A DNA stretch of 64,000 bases from Schmidtea polychroa (taxonomy: Eukaryota): contig CM097885.1 in NCBI GenBank assembly GCA_044892525.1, positions 27,220,001 to 27,284,000 on the forward strand, given 5' to 3'. Both the position numbers and the translations under genes were made by a program. The notes beneath the pieces are model-generated. The model was not told the DNA's origin. It made no database searches and saw only the letters and a list, made by a program, of their open reading frames with translations. The stretch's first letter is position 1, and every line of letters starts with the position of its first letter. This document shows positions 984 through 64,000 of this stretch, piece after piece.

Positions 984-1076
984 TAGAAATGTCAAGGTCA
1001 TCCTAATTGACAAAAAGTCCTTATCTTTATTGAGAACTCTGCTTAATATATTTCACATATTTCTTTAATATTAGAC

Positions 1077-1325
1077 CAGTGGTGGCCAACACAAATCAAT
1101 TGAAGGACAAAATTTTCGGGAAAATACTATCACAGGCCACAATAAATTCATTTAAATAAATATAACTCGTTTTTACGATTCAAGTAAACTTAGAATCAAT
1201 TTTTTAAATTAAAAACATGCTTAATTCGAATATGAAATCTAAAAAAGACAATTATTGATTTGATGTTTAAAATTGTGTCCGGGCCACATCAAAACGCTTC
1301 GCGGACCACCGGTTGGCCATGGCTG
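1077..1325. mobile_element. hAT MITE (same family as 15123-15372, opposite orientation)
   Basis: TIRs CAGTGGTGGCCAAC / GTTGGCCATGGCTG; 8-bp TSD TATTAGAC on both sides. Confidence 0.9.
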
Positions 1326-1674
1326 TATTAGACCAATGATTTTATATACGTTCGACATAATTTTGCCCCTGTCTTTTAGTTGATCCTTGTAAAACTGCAA
1401 AGTGGAATAGTAAATTTCAATATAAGAATAGTAAATTTCAATATGAGAATTTTATTTTGATTTAAAAAAATTTAATTTTGATACAAAATATTTGAAATTC
1501 AATTTATTAATTCAATTAATTCAATTTATTTTACTTACCAAACCCTTCCTAAGTAATATTCCAGTTATAAATATTCGTAAATTTAAATAAAATAAAGTTT
1601 TAAAAAGTTCCATAATTACCAATTAATTTATTTTACAAGTAATTGTAATTAAAACGAAACAACAATATAATTAC

Positions 1675-10271
<8,597 letters not shown>

Positions 10272-19964: not shown

Positions 19965-50420
<30,456 letters not shown>

Positions 50421-51354
50421 TTTTAAATTTTAAAATAAATTTAATATTTTAGTCAATTTCAAGACTAAAAACTGTTTACATGTTATTAAAGTAAAACAAA
50501 TATTTATCAAAGGATGATTATTCTAAACCATTAATAAAAACAAAGAATTTTTTTCAAATTAGTTTTAAATAGATTTCCTAATCCTAAAATATTGGTTTTT
50601 AAAAAGTTTTTGTAACTTTAGAAGTTTTAATTTATATGTCAAAGGATATCATGGCAATAAATGCTGAACATGATTACAAGTATTTTTAGTCATAGCGTTT
50701 TCGTTCAAAATCAAGATCATTATTAAGAAATTTAATAAATTTTCTGAATGGATTATGAAATTGAATTTTTTTTCAGTTCAGATATCAGAATAGATACATT
50801 TTTTGTCTTTACTTCTGGTTGTCTTAGATATTGACTTAGGTCACTATTACATCTGAGACTATCGCAATAATTCATTAAATTGCAACTATGAATCTGCCAC
50901 AAGCAACTCTGGCTCTGTGCATAATGACTAGAACTAGTTCTTGTGCTTCACTTACTCACTGATATATTGATAGAAGGAACATCAATCTCAAAATCTAGGG
51001 ATTACTAGGATTACCCGCATCCCTTTATGAATGGTATTGGTACTTAGGTGATGTGTTATTTCAATGCTCTAGGGCTGCTGCTAGATTTATCGTTGATTCT
51101 TCACTAAATGCCTTCATGATTATTTTACTTTCCATCCTTGAACCCACGGCAGCAACCATGTTGGTAATATACCCACCGGTTGAAAATAAATGAGCAGGTG
51201 AGTTCCACTGCCTTAACTACTCCTCATTGCACTCTCATTTTCAGGTTCATAACTGCAGATAGAGGGTCTTATGTTAATTTATTCTCACGCATTCATTTGT
51301 CGCTTATTCTTCATTTTTTACATTTAATTATGGTCCTACTTGTTTGATGTTAAT

Positions 51355-52764: not shown

Positions 52765-52787
52765 TTTTATTAATAATTTCTTTTATT

Positions 52788-53845
52788 TGTTGGGTTTTGG
52801 ATTATTTCAAGTCGGTTCTCTCTGACTCCTGGTGTTCTTTAAATTAAAACAATGAACGACCCAACGTATATTGAAACAACAGGTTCACAAATTATTATCA
52901 CTCTACAATTACCAATCAAAGTTTTATACGATTCTCCGCTCGGCGTTGATGCTTTGCAAACAAACAATATTCACCTTTTGATCCTTTAGTTCTGTTGACT
53001 CTCGTTTTCCTCGGTTTCTGTTTGGTTTGATCCCTTTTCGCCTTTCCGTATTCTTAATTCTATTTCTTCTTTTCCCTACCTCCCTAATTCGTTTATTAAC
53101 TTTTCCTATCAACTGATTCTTCGAACCCTAGCTGAGGCAGAATGCCGATTTTCTCTGATTTTCCCTTTGCTTATATACTCCTCGAAATCAGGATGACAAA
53201 TGGTTATTGCCGAGCCAATCTTTCGTTTGACATTTTCTCCTACGTGTTTGCTTCGGCTGTCATCCATAATGGTCCAACGAATCCAGATAATTAATGCCCC
53301 TACCAGTCTTCCTACGCGCGCTATCTTCTCCTTACTCTTTTCCCATTAATCATTGTGTCAAACTAATGGGCCCAAATCTTCCTTTTGTTTGCCTTTCTTC
53401 TTGTTTACCCAGCTCGGGTTTCCTTTATCTATCGGGTTCTCCATTGGCTCGGGTTTCCCATTAGCTCGGGTTTTCCATTAGCCAATTAATTAATTAATTA
53501 ACGTTTTCTGTTTTCATACGTTTGAATGTTTTTCGACCCTTCCTAACCCTTTTCTGATAAATCCCTAACCATCATCTTGTTGACCATTAGCTACTCTATA
53601 CCTGTCCCGTTTTCCCATTCGATTTCGATGATTTTTCCATTTATTGATTTTTCTCGGATTTCCGGATTCTCGCCTTTCGTAATTGCCTTTTGCATTTTCT
53701 AATACTGTTTCCATCGCACTTTCCTTTACTATTAATTCTGTGCACGATCCCGCTTTTATTTGCCATTTTTCCTCGCTTACTTTCCAGTTGAATTATTATC
53801 CTAAATTTTATTTAAATTTTTAATTTTAATTTACAGACCTCAACA
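52788..53845 (-). mobile_element. 3' LTR (1058 bp) of a Ty3/gypsy element
   Basis: TGTTG...CAACA termini; immediately preceded on the minus strand by a polypurine tract; related solo copies at 2430-3208 and 51355-51725. Confidence 0.85.
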
Positions 53846-53858
53846 TATCTCCCCCCTT
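53846..53858 (-). promoter_or_regulatory. Polypurine tract (AAGGGGGGAGATA) abutting the 3' LTR
   Basis: The minus strand reads TCGAGGACGAAAAAATTTTTTTAAGGGGGGAGATA|TGTTG. Confidence 0.85.
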
Positions 53859-55667
53859 AAAAAAATTTTTTCGTCCTCGAAATCTATGTTTTGCTGTGAT
53901 TATGTATTATTATTATTATTATTGTTGTCATTATTATCACTATTATTATTATTATTAATATTACCCTTATTATTATTATTACTATTTATCCGAATTATTA
54001 CTTCAAGATATAGACATTTTAATTTTTCAGATTAATTTTATATTTTAATTGCTCTATGAATTAATTAATTATTGATTTTATTGGTTTTAATTATTTTAAA
54101 TTATATTTAAAGTTTTTAGTTATTGCAATAATCGACTTTCAAAATTCATTTTCCAAAAGACCTATTAATTTCCCATTTGCATTTGTCGATATTCCTGTAG
54201 CCAAAACGTCACTCTGAAATGGATCCACAGTCCAATTCTTATTTGCGCAATTGTTTTTATTTTATTTTTGTTTCACTGAAATAAAAATGTACTCTCACAG
54301 TTTCATTTCATTTTTAGTAATACAGTTTTCAAAAGACTTATTTATGGTGTCGACTATAATTTGCCCCTTATTTTATTATACATTTTAAAATTATAAGTTT
54401 GATTTAAAATTTATAAATTAAAAATTTCAATCCTATAAGCTTCAGGATAAATTTCACATTGTGTAATTATATATATATTTTTTTTTTTGTAGAGAAATAT
54501 AACAACATTTCGATGCCTTTGTTATAAACCCAAAAACATTTTCTGTTTGAATTGAAAAAAATGGTTTTGATTTTAAATATATTCTAATTGTATTAATTTT
54601 ATCAGACATTTCTAATCAATGGGAAAATTTTTTTTTCTCTCTTCGATATATTCGGCTTCGTGCAATTGCCGATCATGGACTCAAAACGCCTTGGAAAAGA
54701 GATAAGATAAATTTTTTTCGTCGTGTAAACCGAGATTGGCCAATGTAAACAAAATAGAGGTGATTAATGGGATTTGCTGATTAATTTTTGTCAGAAAGGA
54801 AATAAAATGTACAACACCCAATCAGTTTGCAGTTGTATGTATGTAATGGTAATGAAATTATTTCTCTTCATAAAGAGCAATAAAAATAAACTACACATTT
54901 GATTGGCCATTTGAAAGAGAGAAAATATAGCCTACTGATTTGTATTTAAAAATCGATTTTCGCTAACGAATTATTTAAAATACATTTATTTTTTTTATAT
55001 TAGAGTTTATTTCATTCACACTTATTTATGGTTGACGATTGGGTTATAAAAACCATGTATGCTACCAAACGTCGAAGAAGAAACACAAAATGGTTAGATT
55101 AATTTTTTTTTGTATTAATTGTATAAAAATTCGAATTATTCTCAGTTATTGATTCTCTATCAAAACCGATGATTGATAAGTTGGGGAAAAATCGATATGC
55201 ATTGACAACAATAAATTATGAGAATTATAGCACAGGTTTGAAATATATATTTATCTAATCTGTCGATCAAATCTCAGAATTCCAGCTCAAATCGGAGGTT
55301 CAATAAAATAATGAAAATTTTTTTTTTATATTCTGAAATATTTTTAACAAATGACTTTTTTTTTTGGGTTTATTAATTTATATTTTTAAGATTGAAGTAG
55401 GTTTATTATTTATTCAATTTATGTAACAATTATATCTGATGTTATGAAATATCGGCAATTATAAAGCAATTCAATGATTTGTATAAAATTGTTATTAATC
55501 CTGTTATTTATTAGCATGAGGATTTGAGTGGATATAATAATATTTAGGCATTTGAGTAATGCTTGCAAATTATAATTGGAAATTATTTGAAAATTACCAA
55601 AGAATAATAATATTTGCAGTTCCCTGAAATGTTAGAGATTTAAATGAGAAATAAACTTGAAAAATTA

Positions 55668-56973: not shown

Positions 56974-57686
56974 ATGGACGTAAGTGATTACTTGTCTTTT
57001 GTTATTTTTTTTTTGTTTTTGTGATTCTTTTTACCATGCTGTCCTCAACTATTAGTAATGCGTTCCCTCATAGCAACCGAACATTTGCAATCGCTGTCCA
57101 GGGTAGCCAAACCCCGGTGATTGCAAGTGCTCGTGTTGCTTATTAAATTAACTTATTGATGTTTATTAAATTAACTTATTTACTTTTTAATTTTAATTCG
57201 TTAATTTGTTTATGCAACTACCTACACTCATGTTTTGGGTCATATATTTTTGATTTTTGATTTTGTATTTATACTAAAAGCAAACCTCTAATTACAGCTA
57301 CTCGTATTTTTCTGACAATTTTAGCCGTATTTATACTTATTTATCAATTACTTCCCTGCACTAATTATTTGTCGAGGGCGCCATGGTACGGAGTTTTACA
57401 TAGTATTTATTTCATTTTTCTTTTCAACCCTTACTATTTTAGGCTGTCCCAGAACCTAAGTTTGAGCATCTCGATGTTATGCAATGGTTATTTGACTGCC
57501 ATACTAACAGGTTTATTTAATTTCTTTTTAAGGGTCCCCTTGCCACCGCGTCGAAAGCGATTGAAACGTACCTTTGCCTGTGTGGATACAGGCAGTAGGT
57601 TTGAAAGACGCCCGCCTTGCAATGTACGCAGGGAATGGGACTGTGGCATCCAAAGTCCCGTTCTGTTGGACTCTGATGACGAATAA
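56974..57686 (+). CDS. Predicted antisense spliced mini-gene (~67 aa; basic NLS-like PPRRKRLKR, acidic tail)
   Basis: Coding pieces 56974-56979, 57443-57486 and 57533-57686 join in frame; GT-AG introns, one with TACTAAC; AATAAA overlaps the stop codon. Confidence 0.5.
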
Positions 57687-58215
57687 AACTTTGAATAAAT
57701 GTTCAGCATACCTTTGTTTTTAATTTATGCTAGAAAGGGTGGGGTAGTTGTGTCCCTCTTCGTGAATAGTCTTTGTTACTACTAATGTGAAATTATTCCC
57801 TACTTATTTATAATTTTGTTCTCTCGCCCCAGTGGGTTACCCATTGCTATATAGTTATGCTAATTCATTAATTACTAATCAGCCATGCTCATTTAAGGTA
57901 GTCATTTCATTATTTGCAACATTTATTTGAGTTATTCTATTTGCTCGTTTTTCTTTATTATTCATTTATTTAATTTATCACTTTTTTAATTATTTGTTTA
58001 TATCAATTTGTTTATTCATTTGATTATTTACTTGGTAATCTACTTATTTTTTTATTTAACTATTATCTATCACTGCCAATTATTTCTTTATATCAATTTG
58101 TTTATTTATTTGATTATTTGTTAATTTACTTATATTTATTTAACTATTATTTTTTTTTCCCGAGGACGAAAAACACCAACAGGGTCCGTTTAAATAATTT
58201 ATTTTTTTAGTCTAA

Positions 58216-58452
58216 TTAATTTATCTCACCATCATCTTCCGATTCCTCTATTTCTTCTACTCTCATTCGAAACATCGCGAAATCGGCTTCGTGTTGAAAC
58301 AATAAGATTTCCAAACGGTCCAACCGCCTTTTCAGACGGAAGTTTTCTTCCTCCAAATCTGTTATTCTGCCCTGCATGCTACGAAACTTTTGCTTTAGTT
58401 CTTGCGTACTTGTTTTACACTCTTTGCATGACATCTCCGAGGCTTCTTGCAT
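58216..58452 (-). CDS. 78-aa leucine-zipper/coiled-coil accessory ORF downstream of pol
   Basis: Heptad L19-M26-L33-L40-L47 with Asn37 at an a position, N-terminal CxxC, acidic C-terminus; splice acceptor ttaatttcag 3 nt upstream of the ATG. Confidence 0.55.
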   Translation of the reverse strand: MQEASEMSCKECKTSTQELKQKFRSMQGRITDLEEENFRLKRRLDRLEILLFQHEADFAMFRMRVEEIEESEDDGEIN

Positions 58453-58626
58453 TCTCTGAAATTAAATGATAGTCATTTTTTTGTATCACTCTTTATTCGC
58501 AAAGCATCAACACCTCGCTTCGAATCTCAAACAAATTACACAGTTCATCCTATGGTACTTATAAAACATGCACATTGTTAATATAAATGTAATATATTTT
58601 TATACACTATTCATGCAGATCACAAT

Positions 58627-61600
58627 TTATAGTCTTGTCTCATAATATGAATATGATGGTGGTTGAAGGATAGTTAGTTGTCTCTCTTTTACACATATCA
58701 AGATAGTGATGATTATGAAGGTTATTGATAAGATGAGAAAACCTGTTATTAAAATGTAAATGAGATATTCACAATAGTTGATTGTCAAATCCGAATTTAT
58801 CATCATTAGTTTATTTGAGTTAGGTTTTGTCGTCTCTTGGGTCGGTAATTGGAAAGGTGATGTGGTTGTATCTGATTTTCGTTTCGATTCATTGATTGTC
58901 TTGACTTCCACGAAAACTGTTTGCCATCTGCCTGGTTCGGTTATCCATCGCTGATATTTAACTGTTAATTCCCATGCCGTCTCTAAATCAGAAGTGTAAA
59001 GTGTAAAAAAATGATTACCGGCATCTAATATAGTCAGGGTTTTTTGTTTGTAGATAATAACAACTCTTTCATCATTTCCTGATTTTCTATATATCGTTAC
59101 CGGTCCATTTCCAACACTCAGGGTTATACGATTTGACTCGTCTCTGAGATAGATAGACTGGGTCTCACTCTTAAATCGTGACCATTGGTTTCTCACTACC
59201 GTTCCATTTTCGAGGCATATGTTCACGTAGTAGTTTGCATTAACTGAATAATTTTGATTCATTTTCAATTTCTCGTAGCGGATAAATGATTTTCGCGAGT
59301 TAAGGGTGTCAACATTTAACCCTTGAAATGTGATTCGCACTTTCACCAAGTCCACTGGCTTCCAATATATATTGATTCCATTTATCTCTGGTTCTATTTC
59401 GATCAAGTTTCGCATCTCTTTTGTGTGCACTTCTATCGGAATTTGCGTGTACCACTTTGACATGTTCTGTCTCAACAGCCATTGGTACTTGAAATTTGGC
59501 TTTAACTTTCGTACTGCAAATATATCTTTATCATAATTCAGTTCTACCACTGGTGCCGTATTGTCTAGTAAATCAATAATTTCTATTTGGTCTGCGATCT
59601 CGCATTTACAGCTCCATGCCATATTTGTTAGAGTGGAATATATATGTATTTTCTCCATTCCTCGGATTTTGCTTACCGCATATGGTAAGTCAATCTTTTT
59701 GCCGCTCGCAACTGTTATTAACATCAGCATTATTGCTACATATAATATCTTATTGATGTAGCTGACTGGTGTTGGATTTTTCGTGAATTTCTGTTTCAAT
59801 TTTGTTTGACCCGTTACTTTATTCTGCTTGGATCTTAAGGGGTATCTAGATTCATCTTCCTCTGGCACTAGTTTACATCGATTTGCATGCACAATCATCG
59901 GGTTAGCCTTTTTGCTCCTGAATGGTAATAACTTCAAATTGGTTTCGGTGGTGTCGCACACTTTGTAGGGTCCTTTAAATGGTCTTTGCAATTTAGGCGA
60001 TAAACCTTTGAGAGGTTCCGGCCTGTTCAGATATACTAGATCTCCAATCTTTATGCCATGCGCATGTGCTTTTTTATCGTAGGTTTCTTTATATTTCTCT
60101 TGGTTGTGCTTTATTGTCAAACCGGCTTTAGTCCATACTGACTGCATTCTTTCTTGCATCAATGCTTTATAATCGGGTATCTCCATATATTGTGAAATTG
60201 GTGGTTGGAATTTGAGATCAATCGGCATATTATTTTTCCTTAAATACATCAAATAAAAAGGGGTCTCACCTGTACTTTGATTTACTGCATTTCTGTAGGC
60301 AAATAGACACGGCTTTATGAAGTCGTCCCAATCTTTCTGTTTTCGGTTCACATATGATGAGATCATATTTATCAGTGTCCCATTAAATCGTTCCACTAAT
60401 CCATCAGTTTGTGGATGATATGGTGACGTATTCAATTTCCAAATTCCAAATAGGTCTGTGATTGATTTGAACATCTCGCTTTGAAAGTTCTTTCCTTGAT
60501 CAGTTAACAATTTCTTTGGAGTACCATAGCGAAATATTATGTTTTCCACAAATATTCTAGCAATCGTGTCTGCTTTTTGGTTTGGAATAGCGTATGCCTC
60601 TGGCCATTTGGTAAAATAGTCACAAAAAACAACAATGTATTTGTTTCCTTTTGTTGTTTCCGGTAATGGTCCCAGAATATCCATTGCCGTCATCTCCATT
60701 GGTGCTGCGGGTACTGGCATCGGTTTTAATGGTACTTTAATCTTTTTACCAGTATTTCTGCGGGTGATGCATACTTTGCAACTGTTACACCAATTTTTCA
60801 CGTCTTGCTCCATTGTTGGCCAAAAGTATTTCAATTTTAATCTTGATAGCGTCTTGCGCGTTGACAAATGACCTCCCAACGCTCCATCATGATACTGCAT
60901 CAGTAATGCGTCTCTGTGCTTGGCTGGTATAATAATTAATGCTTCCCCATTTTTCCAACATTTAAGTATTCCATTATGAATTACATATTTGCTGTTTGCA
61001 TCTGTAAGTCGTTTCCAGTCTTGTTCTTTTCTTATTTTGACCGCTTGTTCCATAAATTGTTTTAATTCACTATCGTTTTCCTGATCATTTTGAAGTTCAG
61101 ACATATCATTAACAGCTTTGATTGCAGCGAATATAGTACCTTCCAATTTTTCAGGTGTCCCTTCACTATTACTTTCTGGGATTCTCGACATTGCATCTGC
61201 GTTCGCGTTAGCTTTACCTGTCCGATATTTAATCTCAAAGTCGTATTCTTGGAGGGCAATCGACCATCGTATTAATTTACTGGCTGAATCTCTGTGTTTC
61301 ATTAACCACTGTAATGGATTATGATCTGTATAAACAGTAAATTTTCTGCCCAATAAATATTGTCTAAAAGTAGTAATTCCATACACTAACGCTAACGTTT
61401 CCTTTTCAATCGTTGAGTAGTTTTTCTCGTGAGGCCTCAGTGATCGGCTTGCGTAGGCTATTACGTGGTCCTTTTCACCTTCAAATTTTTGTCCCAATAC
61501 CGCACCCAATGCAACGTTGCTTGCATCCGTCATCAAGATAAATTGTTTCGTAAAATCTGGACATCTTAATATAGGAGTTGTCACTAATTTCTCTTTTAAT

Positions 61601-64000
61601 ATATTGAAAGCATTTTGTTGCATTTGTCCCCAAATAAATTTATTGTTTTTCTTTAGTAACGTATTCAATGGTTGTGGGATATGAGAGAAATCTTTTATAA
61701 ATTTTCTGTAATAGCTTGCCAAACCTAAAAATTGTCTAACCTCATCGGCATCTTTTGGTACTGGGTACTCTTCCACTTTTTTGATGTTATCTGGATTAGT
61801 TTGTAACCCTCGCCGTGATATTATATGTCCTACATAAATCACTTCTGCTTTGCCCCATTCACATTTCGATGGTTTGATTTTTAATTTTGCACTTTTGAGC
61901 CGTTTAAATACAGTTTCTACATCTTTCAGGTGTTCTTCGAAATCATTTGAAAATATTATTATATCGTCGATATATACCAATGCATGTCGAATTCCTCGTA
62001 ACACATAATTCATTCCTCGTTGGAATGTAGCTGGGGCTCCTGTTAATCCAAATGGTAACACATTAAACTCATACAGTCCTTTGCCATCCGAGAACGCCGT
62101 CTTTCCTCTATCTTCCTCTTTTACTCTAAATTGATTGTACCTTTTGTTTAAATCAATAACAGTGAAATATCGTGCCTCTCCCATTTGATCGAACATTTCT
62201 TGAGGTACTGGAATTGGATAAGTGTCTTTCCTCGTAACTTGATTTAGCTTCCTATAATTTACGCAAAATCGTAAGTCTCCATCCTTTTTCTTAACTATCA
62301 CTATTGATGAGAAGAATGGTGACGCACTATCTCGAATTATTCCAAATTCCTTCATTGCTGTAATCTGTCTATCACTTTCATCTTGATGAACGTAGGGGAT
62401 TCTGTATGGCTTTATTTTTATTGGAGTTTCATCTAATAACGGTATTTCATGCTCAATTACATTGGTTAGACCTAAATCATATTCGTGTTTGGCAAAGATA
62501 TCTCGGTATTTTCTCAACAGTTTTGTGAATTCCTTTTTCTGCATCTCATTTAAATCATTGCTTACCACTTCAGGCTCCTTGTACACCTTGACGTTTCTTG
62601 GTATTTTACAATTTGTTTCAATAGACATTTTTGATAATTTTCCCAATTTTGTTTTTGGGTGTAACTGAACCGGTTTCTTACTGCTATTCGTTATATGGAC
62701 TGGTACTATCTGATTTTCCACTTTAACAACTTCGTCACATATCGGTAAATCATATTTTTCGACTAGCGTTTGATTTGGTTCGAATATAAAATCACCATCA
62801 TCCACACTCATGGTATTTGCACAATATACCATCTCCGATTGTGGTGGTATTGTCAATGTCTGATTCACAAACACTTCACCTGCCCTGTGAATTATTTCTC
62901 CTGTTTCTCTTGCTATCAAATTACCTGTCTTTAAGTCAAGTGAGACTCCGTCCAGCTGCTCTAATATATCCATACCGATCAGACATCGTACTGGGCTTCC
63001 CTCCATTATGAGCGCATCGTGCGCTATTATTCGATCTCCAATATGGAATATGACGTTAAGTTGTCCAATTATGTTTAATTCATTTTTTGATAATGACCTC
63101 ACTATTTCGTCGGTAGGCTTTATTCGCATTTTCTCCTTCGCGTTTAATACATTTTCCGATATTATTGTGTGACTAGATCCCGAATCGACTAAAGCTTCCA
63201 CTTTATGTTTGTTCATTTGTATAAATATTCGGGGTTGCTTTCCTCTTTTTGTTAATGTCATCAATGAGTAGTTGCATGGTAAGCCTAACATATTTTTTCT
63301 CTCGATCTCTGCGCTAGAAGGCTCGATTCTCTCTCCTACCATTCCTTCACATTGTAATGCGATGTTTTCCACTGGTTTCATCTCTCGTAATCGATCAACT
63401 GGATACACTGGTGCTGGTTGCATAAATGATTTTGGTATACACAATTTTGTAAACGTGTCTACGCTACTCGCATTCAACAGTGGCTCTTGTAAGATTTGAT
63501 AAGTTCTCAACGCTTCTTTATTCATTCCACTTAGTTCTTGATTGTCAACATATAACGGTGCACTATCACCCTCGTTGTCATTGTCATTGTTCTCGTCTCT
63601 TGAAGGGGTAGTACTAGCGTAGCTCACCTTTTTCTTCTTTAATATTCTCGCTTTGAGTATCTCCAACTCCTGATATTGATGATGAGTAATGAAGAATCTA
63701 GCCAATAATGGTATGCAACCAATTACTAGTTTCCACGACCAACCTGTGATCGCGTATAATCTGTGTGTTGACAGGATCTGCGACATTATTACTTTGATTA
63801 CAACACATATTACATAAATTCCAATCAATCCGGCACATGCTTGTCCAATGAACATAAACTTTCCCCAGATCTTTTTCATTGTATTATACGTCGCTTTCTT
63901 GTAATGATATGGAGTTAACAAATACTCGTAATTTACCTTCCCACTTCCGCTTGGGAGAATTGTATCTACCATTTCCATTATTACTCTCTCTTTCTTTGAT
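58627..64000 (-). CDS. pol: Ty3/gypsy polyprotein (>1790 aa, open past the window end): viral-glycoprotein-like TM region - PR - RT - RNase H - IN(GPY/F) - type I membrane protein
   Basis: PR ALVDSGS (D at 63186-63184); RT LPFGL/YIDD; RNase H TDAS, EKETLA, YTDH, ADAMSR; IN HHCC (HDGALGGH..CKVC), MDILGP, TDQG, VERFNG, KGPYKV. The frame is open from 64000 (SKKERVI) into the listed Met. Confidence 0.95.
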   Translation of the reverse strand, partial: SKKERVIMEMVDTILPSGSGKVNYEYLLTPYHYKKATYNTMKKIWGKFMFIGQACAGLIGIYVICVVIKVIMSQILSTHRLYAITGWSWKLVIGCIPLLARFFITHHQYQELEILKARILKKKKVSYASTTPSRDENNDNDNEGDSAPLYVDNQELSGMNKEALRTYQILQEPLLNASSVDTFTKLCIPKSFMQPAPVYPVDRLREMKPVENIALQCEGMVGERIEPSSAEIERKNMLGLPCNYSLMTLTKRGKQPRIFIQMNKHKVEALVDSGSSHTIISENVLNAKEKMRIKPTDEIVRSLSKNELNIIGQLNVIFHIGDRIIAHDALIMEGSPVRCLIGMDILEQLDGVSLDLKTGNLIARETGEIIHRAGEVFVNQTLTIPPQSEMVYCANTMSVDDGDFIFEPNQTLVEKYDLPICDEVVKVENQIVPVHITNSSKKPVQLHPKTKLGKLSKMSIETNCKIPRNVKVYKEPEVVSNDLNEMQKKEFTKLLRKYRDIFAKHEYDLGLTNVIEHEIPLLDETPIKIKPYRIPYVHQDESDRQITAMKEFGIIRDSASPFFSSIVIVKKKDGDLRFCVNYRKLNQVTRKDTYPIPVPQEMFDQMGEARYFTVIDLNKRYNQFRVKEEDRGKTAFSDGKGLYEFNVLPFGLTGAPATFQRGMNYVLRGIRHALVYIDDIIIFSNDFEEHLKDVETVFKRLKSAKLKIKPSKCEWGKAEVIYVGHIISRRGLQTNPDNIKKVEEYPVPKDADEVRQFLGLASYYRKFIKDFSHIPQPLNTLLKKNNKFIWGQMQQNAFNILKEKLVTTPILRCPDFTKQFILMTDASNVALGAVLGQKFEGEKDHVIAYASRSLRPHEKNYSTIEKETLALVYGITTFRQYLLGRKFTVYTDHNPLQWLMKHRDSASKLIRWSIALQEYDFEIKYRTGKANANADAMSRIPESNSEGTPEKLEGTIFAAIKAVNDMSELQNDQENDSELKQFMEQAVKIRKEQDWKRLTDANSKYVIHNGILKCWKNGEALIIIPAKHRDALLMQYHDGALGGHLSTRKTLSRLKLKYFWPTMEQDVKNWCNSCKVCITRRNTGKKIKVPLKPMPVPAAPMEMTAMDILGPLPETTKGNKYIVVFCDYFTKWPEAYAIPNQKADTIARIFVENIIFRYGTPKKLLTDQGKNFQSEMFKSITDLFGIWKLNTSPYHPQTDGLVERFNGTLINMISSYVNRKQKDWDDFIKPCLFAYRNAVNQSTGETPFYLMYLRKNNMPIDLKFQPPISQYMEIPDYKALMQERMQSVWTKAGLTIKHNQEKYKETYDKKAHAHGIKIGDLVYLNRPEPLKGLSPKLQRPFKGPYKVCDTTETNLKLLPFRSKKANPMIVHANRCKLVPEEDESRYPLRSKQNKVTGQTKLKQKFTKNPTPVSYINKILYVAIMLMLITVASGKKIDLPYAVSKIRGMEKIHIYSTLTNMAWSCKCEIADQIEIIDLLDNTAPVVELNYDKDIFAVRKLKPNFKYQWLLRQNMSKWYTQIPIEVHTKEMRNLIEIEPEINGINIYWKPVDLVKVRITFQGLNVDTLNSRKSFIRYEKLKMNQNYSVNANYYVNICLENGTVVRNQWSRFKSETQSIYLRDESNRITLSVGNGPVTIYRKSGNDERVVIIYKQKTLTILDAGNHFFTLYTSDLETAWELTVKYQRWITEPGRWQTVFVEVKTINESKRKSDTTTSPFQLPTQETTKPNSNKLMMINSDLTINYCEYLIYILITGFLILSITFIIITILICVKERQLTILQPPSYSYYETRL

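Follow-up and report, generated by a model that had tools for sequence, protein, structure and literature searches.

Burro elements of planarians encode a single polyprotein comprising Gag, ubiquitin/SUMO-like and BCL2-like domains and an env that lies in frame between gag and pol (Arkhipova & Yushenova 2019, PMC6431247), and BURRO1, a relative of the element analyzed here, is tissue-specifically derepressed on PIWI loss (PMC8532177). The GAG-ENV-POL order has also been reported in flatworms, nematodes, and bryozoans (Chary & Hayashi, eLife, PMC13524379), and Smed_errantivirus_2 is listed there with 215 copies. In nematode gag-env-pol metaviruses (Sacco et al. 2022, as cited in PMC13524379) an RNA-virus glycoprotein serves as Env and precedes pol. 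Membrane proteins of another kind are represented by sORF2 of the MDG1 group (PMC11952523), a short accessory transmembrane protein that occurs in LTR retrotransposons without Env and has been linked to cell-to-cell transfer.

The element analyzed here is an env-bearing Ty3/gypsy (Metaviridae) element of a planarian that is related to the Burro elements. It was detected in a 64,000-nucleotide stretch of Schmidtea polychroa DNA (the window), where a single stop-free frame of 1,790 aa (63999..58627, minus strand) runs off the window edge; all features of the element given below are on the minus strand. Pfam assigned aa 18–136 of this frame to Monjiviricetes_fusion (PF24664; E 2.5e-13, above the cut-off), followed by a protease (aa 254–351), a reverse transcriptase (aa 569–727), an RNase H (aa 790–919), and an integrase (aa 1024–1210), which is the PR-RT-RH-IN order of Ty3/gypsy elements. 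In window coordinates, the C-terminal end of the chuvirus-type fusion glycoprotein occupies 63592..64000 and includes a transmembrane segment (63763–63864) located by a hydropathy scan. A cytosolic linker without a Pfam match (63241..63591) connects this anchor to the aspartic protease (DSG; 62947..63240), which is followed by the reverse transcriptase (YIDD; 61819..62295), the RNase H (61243..61632), and the integrase with its HHCC motif, DDE core, and GPY/F region (59905..60930). A dUTPase-like segment between PR and RT, as reported for Burro, had no Pfam support in this polyprotein. Downstream of the integrase, the hydropathy scan revealed an internal signal-type stretch (59701..59772), which has small residues at −3/−1 and a predicted signal-peptidase site, and a strong transmembrane segment (58675..58788). 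The ectodomain between them (58882..59700) is predicted to form three tandem beta-sandwich domains and is joined to the membrane by a Thr/Ser/Pro-rich stalk (58789..58881), and the frame closes with a short cytoplasmic tail that carries a class I PDZ-binding-type ending, and the stop codon (58627..58674). 

Addition of the genome sequence past position 64000 recovered gag, the primer site, and the 5′ LTR, and the frame then reached 3,290 aa, the window frame being its 3′ part. In this copy, an in-frame stop lies ~40 codons after the probable start. From LTR to LTR the element measures 17,243 bp. Its LTRs (1,058–1,059 bp, with TG...CA ends) are 99.4% identical to each other; the 3′ LTR (1,058 bp) is located at 52788..53845 and the 5′ LTR outside the window (L031:6972-8030). 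The insertion is flanked by a 4-bp target-site duplication (52784..52787), the identical four bases being found outside the 5′ LTR, and contains a polypurine tract (53849..53858) and, as its primer site, a match to host tRNA-Trp(CCA) (L031:6947-6964). A tandem array of tRNA-Trp(CCA) genes with a 284-bp period, the primer tRNA of the element, was observed elsewhere (L073/L074; G000:C4, from 55.02 Mb) and accounted for 99 of the first 100 listed matches.

The upstream part of the polyprotein begins with a Gag that contains a capsid domain and CCHC knuckles (L031:5696-6499). It continues with ubiquitin-like segments (L031:4394-5071; E 3.6e-5 for one domain, plus a second similar segment) and a Bcl-2-like domain (L031:3554-3877; E 0.007 in this copy and E 6e-6 in family B), both domain matches scoring below the Pfam cut-offs. 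These domains, together with an acidic linker, lie upstream of the glycoprotein, whose remaining ectodomain and signal sequence extend to L031:3553. The full-length glycoprotein matched PF24664 with E 3e-73, and a PDB profile search with it found no relative. The Bcl-2-like domain immediately precedes the Env signal sequence, which, once cleaved, could act as the membrane tail anchor of this domain.

The domain order is Gag, ubiquitin-like, Bcl-2-like, fusion glycoprotein, PR-RT-RH-IN, signal peptide, ectodomain, transmembrane segment, and tail. The initial annotation, made from the window, had described one frame with a membrane anchor, PR-RT-RH-IN, and a second signal/ectodomain/transmembrane module, and ORF, Pfam, and hydropathy analyses agreed with this description. 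Its suggestion that the hydrophobic stretch belongs to a glycoprotein was supported by the PF24664 homology. It had also noted that Gag does not adjoin PR: no CCHC knuckle occurs upstream of PR inside the window, and the knuckles were found ~1,500 aa further upstream. The proposed order of gag, glycoprotein, pol, and second surface protein proved to be that of one polyprotein and is conserved in copies and families. What did not hold was the view that the whole architecture is new, because an in-frame env between gag and pol had been published (PMC6431247, PMC13524379), for the same family in the supplement of PMC13524379. The Env sequence differs from that of Smed_errantivirus_2 at 2 of 251 residues when compared by eye, so env-before-pol has already been published for this very family.

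The element shares its gag-env-pol order and chuvirus-type env with Smed_errantivirus_2 and the GAG-ENV-POL “HSV/gB-type” errantiviruses (PMC13524379); the gB label for Env, and with it a putative class III (gB-like) trimeric fold, is taken from that study. Like the nematode metaviruses cited there, it has an RNA-virus glycoprotein as Env before pol. With Burro/GYPSM1 it shares the single polyprotein with Gag, ubiquitin-like and BCL2-like domains (the latter two below Pfam cut-offs here), an in-frame env, and PR-RT-RH-IN (PMC6431247). Unlike Burro, which exceeds 30 kb and encodes a polyprotein of ~4,900 aa, it is 17.2 kb long with a 3,290-aa frame, and ankyrin, BIR, and MATH domains, which are features of Burro (PMC6431247), gave no Pfam match at E ≤ 1 in its polyprotein. 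The Burro review, as far as its available text goes, names no membrane protein after the integrase, whereas ankyrin-bearing elements of the genome studied here have one. In the main text of PMC13524379 the terms “fibronectin”, “accessory”, “attachment”, and “additional domain” are absent, and no second membrane protein after the integrase appears in the accessible text. The likeness to MDG1-group sORF2 (PMC11952523) extends to an accessory transmembrane protein in an LTR retrotransposon, but sORF2 is short and belongs to elements without Env, whereas the protein described here is a ~355-aa FN3-like part of the polyprotein that occurs alongside Env. In the papers listed by literature searches, titles and abstract beginnings mention no FN3 or second membrane protein after the integrase, and figures or supplements of earlier papers may annotate one. 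Hence, both the element family and its gene order are known, and the FN3-like post-integrase membrane protein is apparently unreported.

Single-sequence word searches with the post-integrase module retrieved no relatives. One relative outside the element, P0002 (410 aa, 20% identity, E 7.7e-7), was recovered by an alignment-based search as well as by an exhaustive search; it originates from one 2.8-kb contig and also has a signal, a transmembrane segment, and a tail. Metagenome contigs searched with A1 and P0002 yielded no relatives. A search of the element's own genome with P0002 (102 of 881 candidates listed) exposed further families; the 22 loci that were read all proved to be copies of elements. 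The module is present in six families (A–F; 26 loci read), with ~35–47% identity to the module of this element.

Based on a 13-row alignment, the ectodomain was modeled with a mean pLDDT of 73 and a pTM of 0.57, with most of domain 1 at pLDDT 42–69; folding of the single sequence gave a pLDDT of 33. The top Foldseek match in the PDB was fibronectin III 10–12 (E 3e-7), and most listed rows were FN3 arrays, with Tie2, CD45, integrin beta-4, and gp130 arrays in lower rows and IFNAR also among the fold matches. An independent aligner, VIA, gave Z 8.9 and an rmsd of 2.4 Å over 77 residues for domain 2, and Z about 9 with an rmsd of about 2.4 Å per domain for residues 96–185 and 184–271, where a Z of 8–9 barely exceeds VIA's stated common range. 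Whole-chain TM-scores were low (0.2–0.35), and domain 1, which had low pLDDT, was barely aligned by VIA. Hhalign detected homology between domains 2 and 3 (P 83%, E 9e-6). Since the best VIA row for domain 3 was a bacterial surface glycan-binding protein, we regard this domain as FN3/Ig-like rather than proven FN3. Atlas assigned an fn3 score of 0.94 to the remote homologue P0002. Pfam fn3 matched 0 of the 13 module members, PDB sequence searches with the module gave no match, and the BFVD fold matches consisted of FN3/Ig arrays from phages and giant viruses, none of them a specific relative. A weak Pfam match of the module to beta-propellers was dropped in favor of the predicted model, in which domains 2 and 3 model as fibronectin type III-like folds.

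The C-terminal module had 109 scored genomic matches at 95–100% identity among 1,353 candidates. Fourteen of the 109, counted by eye, lay in open frames of at least 3,000 aa and the other 95 in shorter frames. Single contigs of two public studies cover positions 58169–64000 and 58087–64000 at ~98% identity. The 109 scored copies, the 14 long frames, and these spanning contigs from two studies show that the element is not an assembly artefact. Family A is large and young, and the element is recently active. Contigs of four runs were not counted as evidence of expression because they may represent DNA rather than RNA.

The second module is under purifying selection. Ectodomain dN/dS was 0.12–0.29 in the 7 informative of 14 pairs, with bootstrap intervals below 0.5; the remaining seven pairs were uninformative, five being saturated (A–C, A–D, C–F, A–F, and A–E) and two having too few changes (C–C2, 0.75; E–Edel, 0.31), with intervals that span 1. 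Within family A, pN/pS was 0.26 for the module (15/15 loci), 0.21 for env (14/15), and 0.14–0.16 for IN and RT (11/15 each), gapped or truncated loci being dropped. The flanking modules, which the initial annotation had allowed might be a one-off, recur in copies and families, and the second one is selectively maintained. Derivatives that lack pol but hold env and the module in one frame were found in three families, with three different junctions: four loci read in family A share one junction (L002/L020, L006/L027, L011, and L022), three in family E share another (L051, L053, and L054), and one was read in family B (L035). The family A joint also occurs in run X1. Because the module or env was used to find these loci, their occurrence is subject to selection bias, and the information lies solely in the retention of the frame.

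Searching for other env families by motif yielded 692 matches. From the first 100 of these as listed, one locus was read for each of five motif variants. Integrase identity between these five distant loci and the present element is ~50%, and an upstream env was confirmed in 4/4 loci checked. A signal-type stretch, an ectodomain, a transmembrane segment, and a tail follow the integrase in all five, with ankyrin repeats intervening in three; ankyrins were found in lineages H and I, and the module of the L062 copy contains a frameshift. Trees of IN and env, which comprise elements of this genome only and have long branches and a root placed for drawing only, contained three deep groups (A–F, G, and H/I). 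Between these deep lineages Env is 36–40% identical, whereas the second ectodomain differs in size and is no longer recognizable by sequence. No match to the G/H/I ectodomains was obtained with the A1 profile, Pfam found no credible family in them, and hhalign scores against the A–F ectodomains were near those of shuffled controls; an FN3-like motif was seen by eye only. These comparisons do not establish homology between the distant ectodomains and the A–F module, so the position may have been conserved and its function have varied between lineages.

Signal and transmembrane segment are kept across nine families and the tail motif in eight. We take a class I PDZ-binding-type motif to be [ST]x[VLI]-COOH. 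This pattern terminates 11 of 12 tails (8/9 families plus P0002) compared to 2.3% of polyprotein positions, where each family is represented by one or two copies and, because the families are related, the matches amount to approximately four independent observations rather than eleven. The motif was absent from the single copy read in family D, and individual copies have altered ends (L033, L045, and L049). Two env-less gypsy elements that were met by chance, a small control, end at the integrase.

We consider it very probable that the post-integrase product is a real, selected membrane protein released by signal peptidase. According to standard ER biology, the single polyprotein would cross the ER membrane twice, each signal stretch sending the following ectodomain into the lumen and each transmembrane segment bringing the chain back to the cytosol. 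The two glycoproteins would be released at their N-termini by signal peptidase and the cytosolic parts excised by the protease of the element, and Gag, Env, Pol, and the FN3 protein would thus be made in equal amounts. As a type I surface protein in its own right, the FN3 protein may then assist spread: the ectodomain would engage a partner on the cell surface or in the matrix, and the PDZ-type tail would dock the protein at junctional or polarity scaffolds, so that budding or transfer between cells takes place at sites where the fusogen is able to act. These steps are derived from the sequence and the predicted structure, and we tentatively favor such a role in adhesion or localization during spread of the element, giving it slightly less than an even chance. 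Retention of the slot and the tail motif alongside a changing ectodomain is easier to reconcile with a variable outward-facing ligand anchored to a constant scaffold inside the cell than with a fixed chaperone of Env, but does not discriminate between adhesion and modulation of the host.

Host modulation is the alternative that fares best, and we regard it as not much less likely than the adhesion role. On this view, the element captured a mimic of a receptor or adhesion protein; the FN3 protein would serve as a decoy or interfere with signaling at PDZ scaffolds, so that the cell expressing it survives or escapes notice. Host signaling is a frequent target of viral PDZ-binding motifs, and retention of the tail motif while the ectodomains change beyond recognition would suit this function. 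An FN3 ectodomain with stalk, transmembrane segment, and short tail follows a cytokine-receptor-like plan, to which weak Atlas leads (0.87) point, and gp130, IFNAR, CD45, and Tie2 are among the fold matches; the same polyprotein also carries Bcl-2-like (apoptosis) and ubiquitin-like cargo. A role directed at the host is less easily reconciled with the tail, whose 15–20 residues include no signaling domain, and with the distribution of the module, which was found with env in all env families sampled but not in the two env-less elements.

As a further alternative, the FN3 protein would be an obligate partner of the fusogen in the two-component envelope suggested by the initial annotation, binding Env directly to assist its folding, to prime it, or to trigger it. 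The gB protein of herpesviruses depends on partner glycoproteins, and both co-translation in equal amounts and retention of the module with env in the pol-less derivatives of three families are in line with such a partnership. We nevertheless find it improbable, because a second ectodomain that changes past recognition next to an Env that stays 36–40% identical across deep lineages is unlike a fixed partner. A functionless passenger host fragment or one-off chimera would fit the breakage somewhere in most copies (95/109 scored matches in frames under 3,000 aa), as expected after insertion, but this reading is hardly credible given that dN/dS is well below 1 and that the signal and transmembrane segment have been kept in nine families and the tail motif in eight.

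Returning to adhesion and localization, a more specific reading, which we put forward as a conjecture that may well fail, is that the planarian gag-env-pol elements are an endogenous-virus lineage whose second surface protein, a host-like FN3 scaffold with a PDZ-binding tail, has been swapped or remodeled between lineages as a tropism module for the chuvirus-type fusogen, acting in particle attachment or at cell-to-cell transfer sites. If true, fusion and attachment would in this retroelement be divided between two proteins, one on either side of Pol. Chuvirus/gB-type envelopes are found in retroelements of many animal phyla, and a conserved second surface protein is a testable candidate for the choice of target cells. 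Elements of this kind are numerous in an animal used as a stem-cell model. With the protein described here, the cargo known from LTR elements comes to include an FN3-like membrane protein that has a PDZ-type tail, and the “Pol” frames in question are seen to end in ~380 residues that do not belong to Pol.

Further reading frames were observed in and near the elements. A small ORF downstream of the polyprotein (58216..58452, minus strand; ~78 aa) with a coiled-coil look is open in 14/15 family A loci and 46–48% identical in family C, which makes it a candidate accessory gene. A 141-aa plus-strand ORF (57261–57686) was rejected as a gene, being open at full length in 0/14 other family A loci; within this region, families A and C share 55% translated identity over a ~46-codon stretch at ~57530–57686, which may be coding on either strand. 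In the long 3′ region, a GT..AG stretch of 53 bases (55091–55145, plus strand, antisense to the element) was skipped in two runs. Separate ORFs 3′ of the polyprotein were seen in families B and G (L035:5767-7224, minus strand; L059:1673-3025 and L062:1648-3999, plus strand). By eye they look like DEDD-type 3′–5′ exonucleases; Pfam gave no supporting match. After the polyprotein of an ankyrin-bearing element, an ORF at L068 (~1000–1800, plus strand) has by eye a RING/zinc-finger (TRAF-like) look. Adjoining the insertion, an exon-like frame in the window (49995–50429, minus strand) has what we take to be an SH2-domain look and is probably part of a host gene. On the other side, a second, env-less and broken gypsy element (L032, window-equivalent 72031–75760, minus strand) lies ~2 kb upstream of the 5′ LTR.
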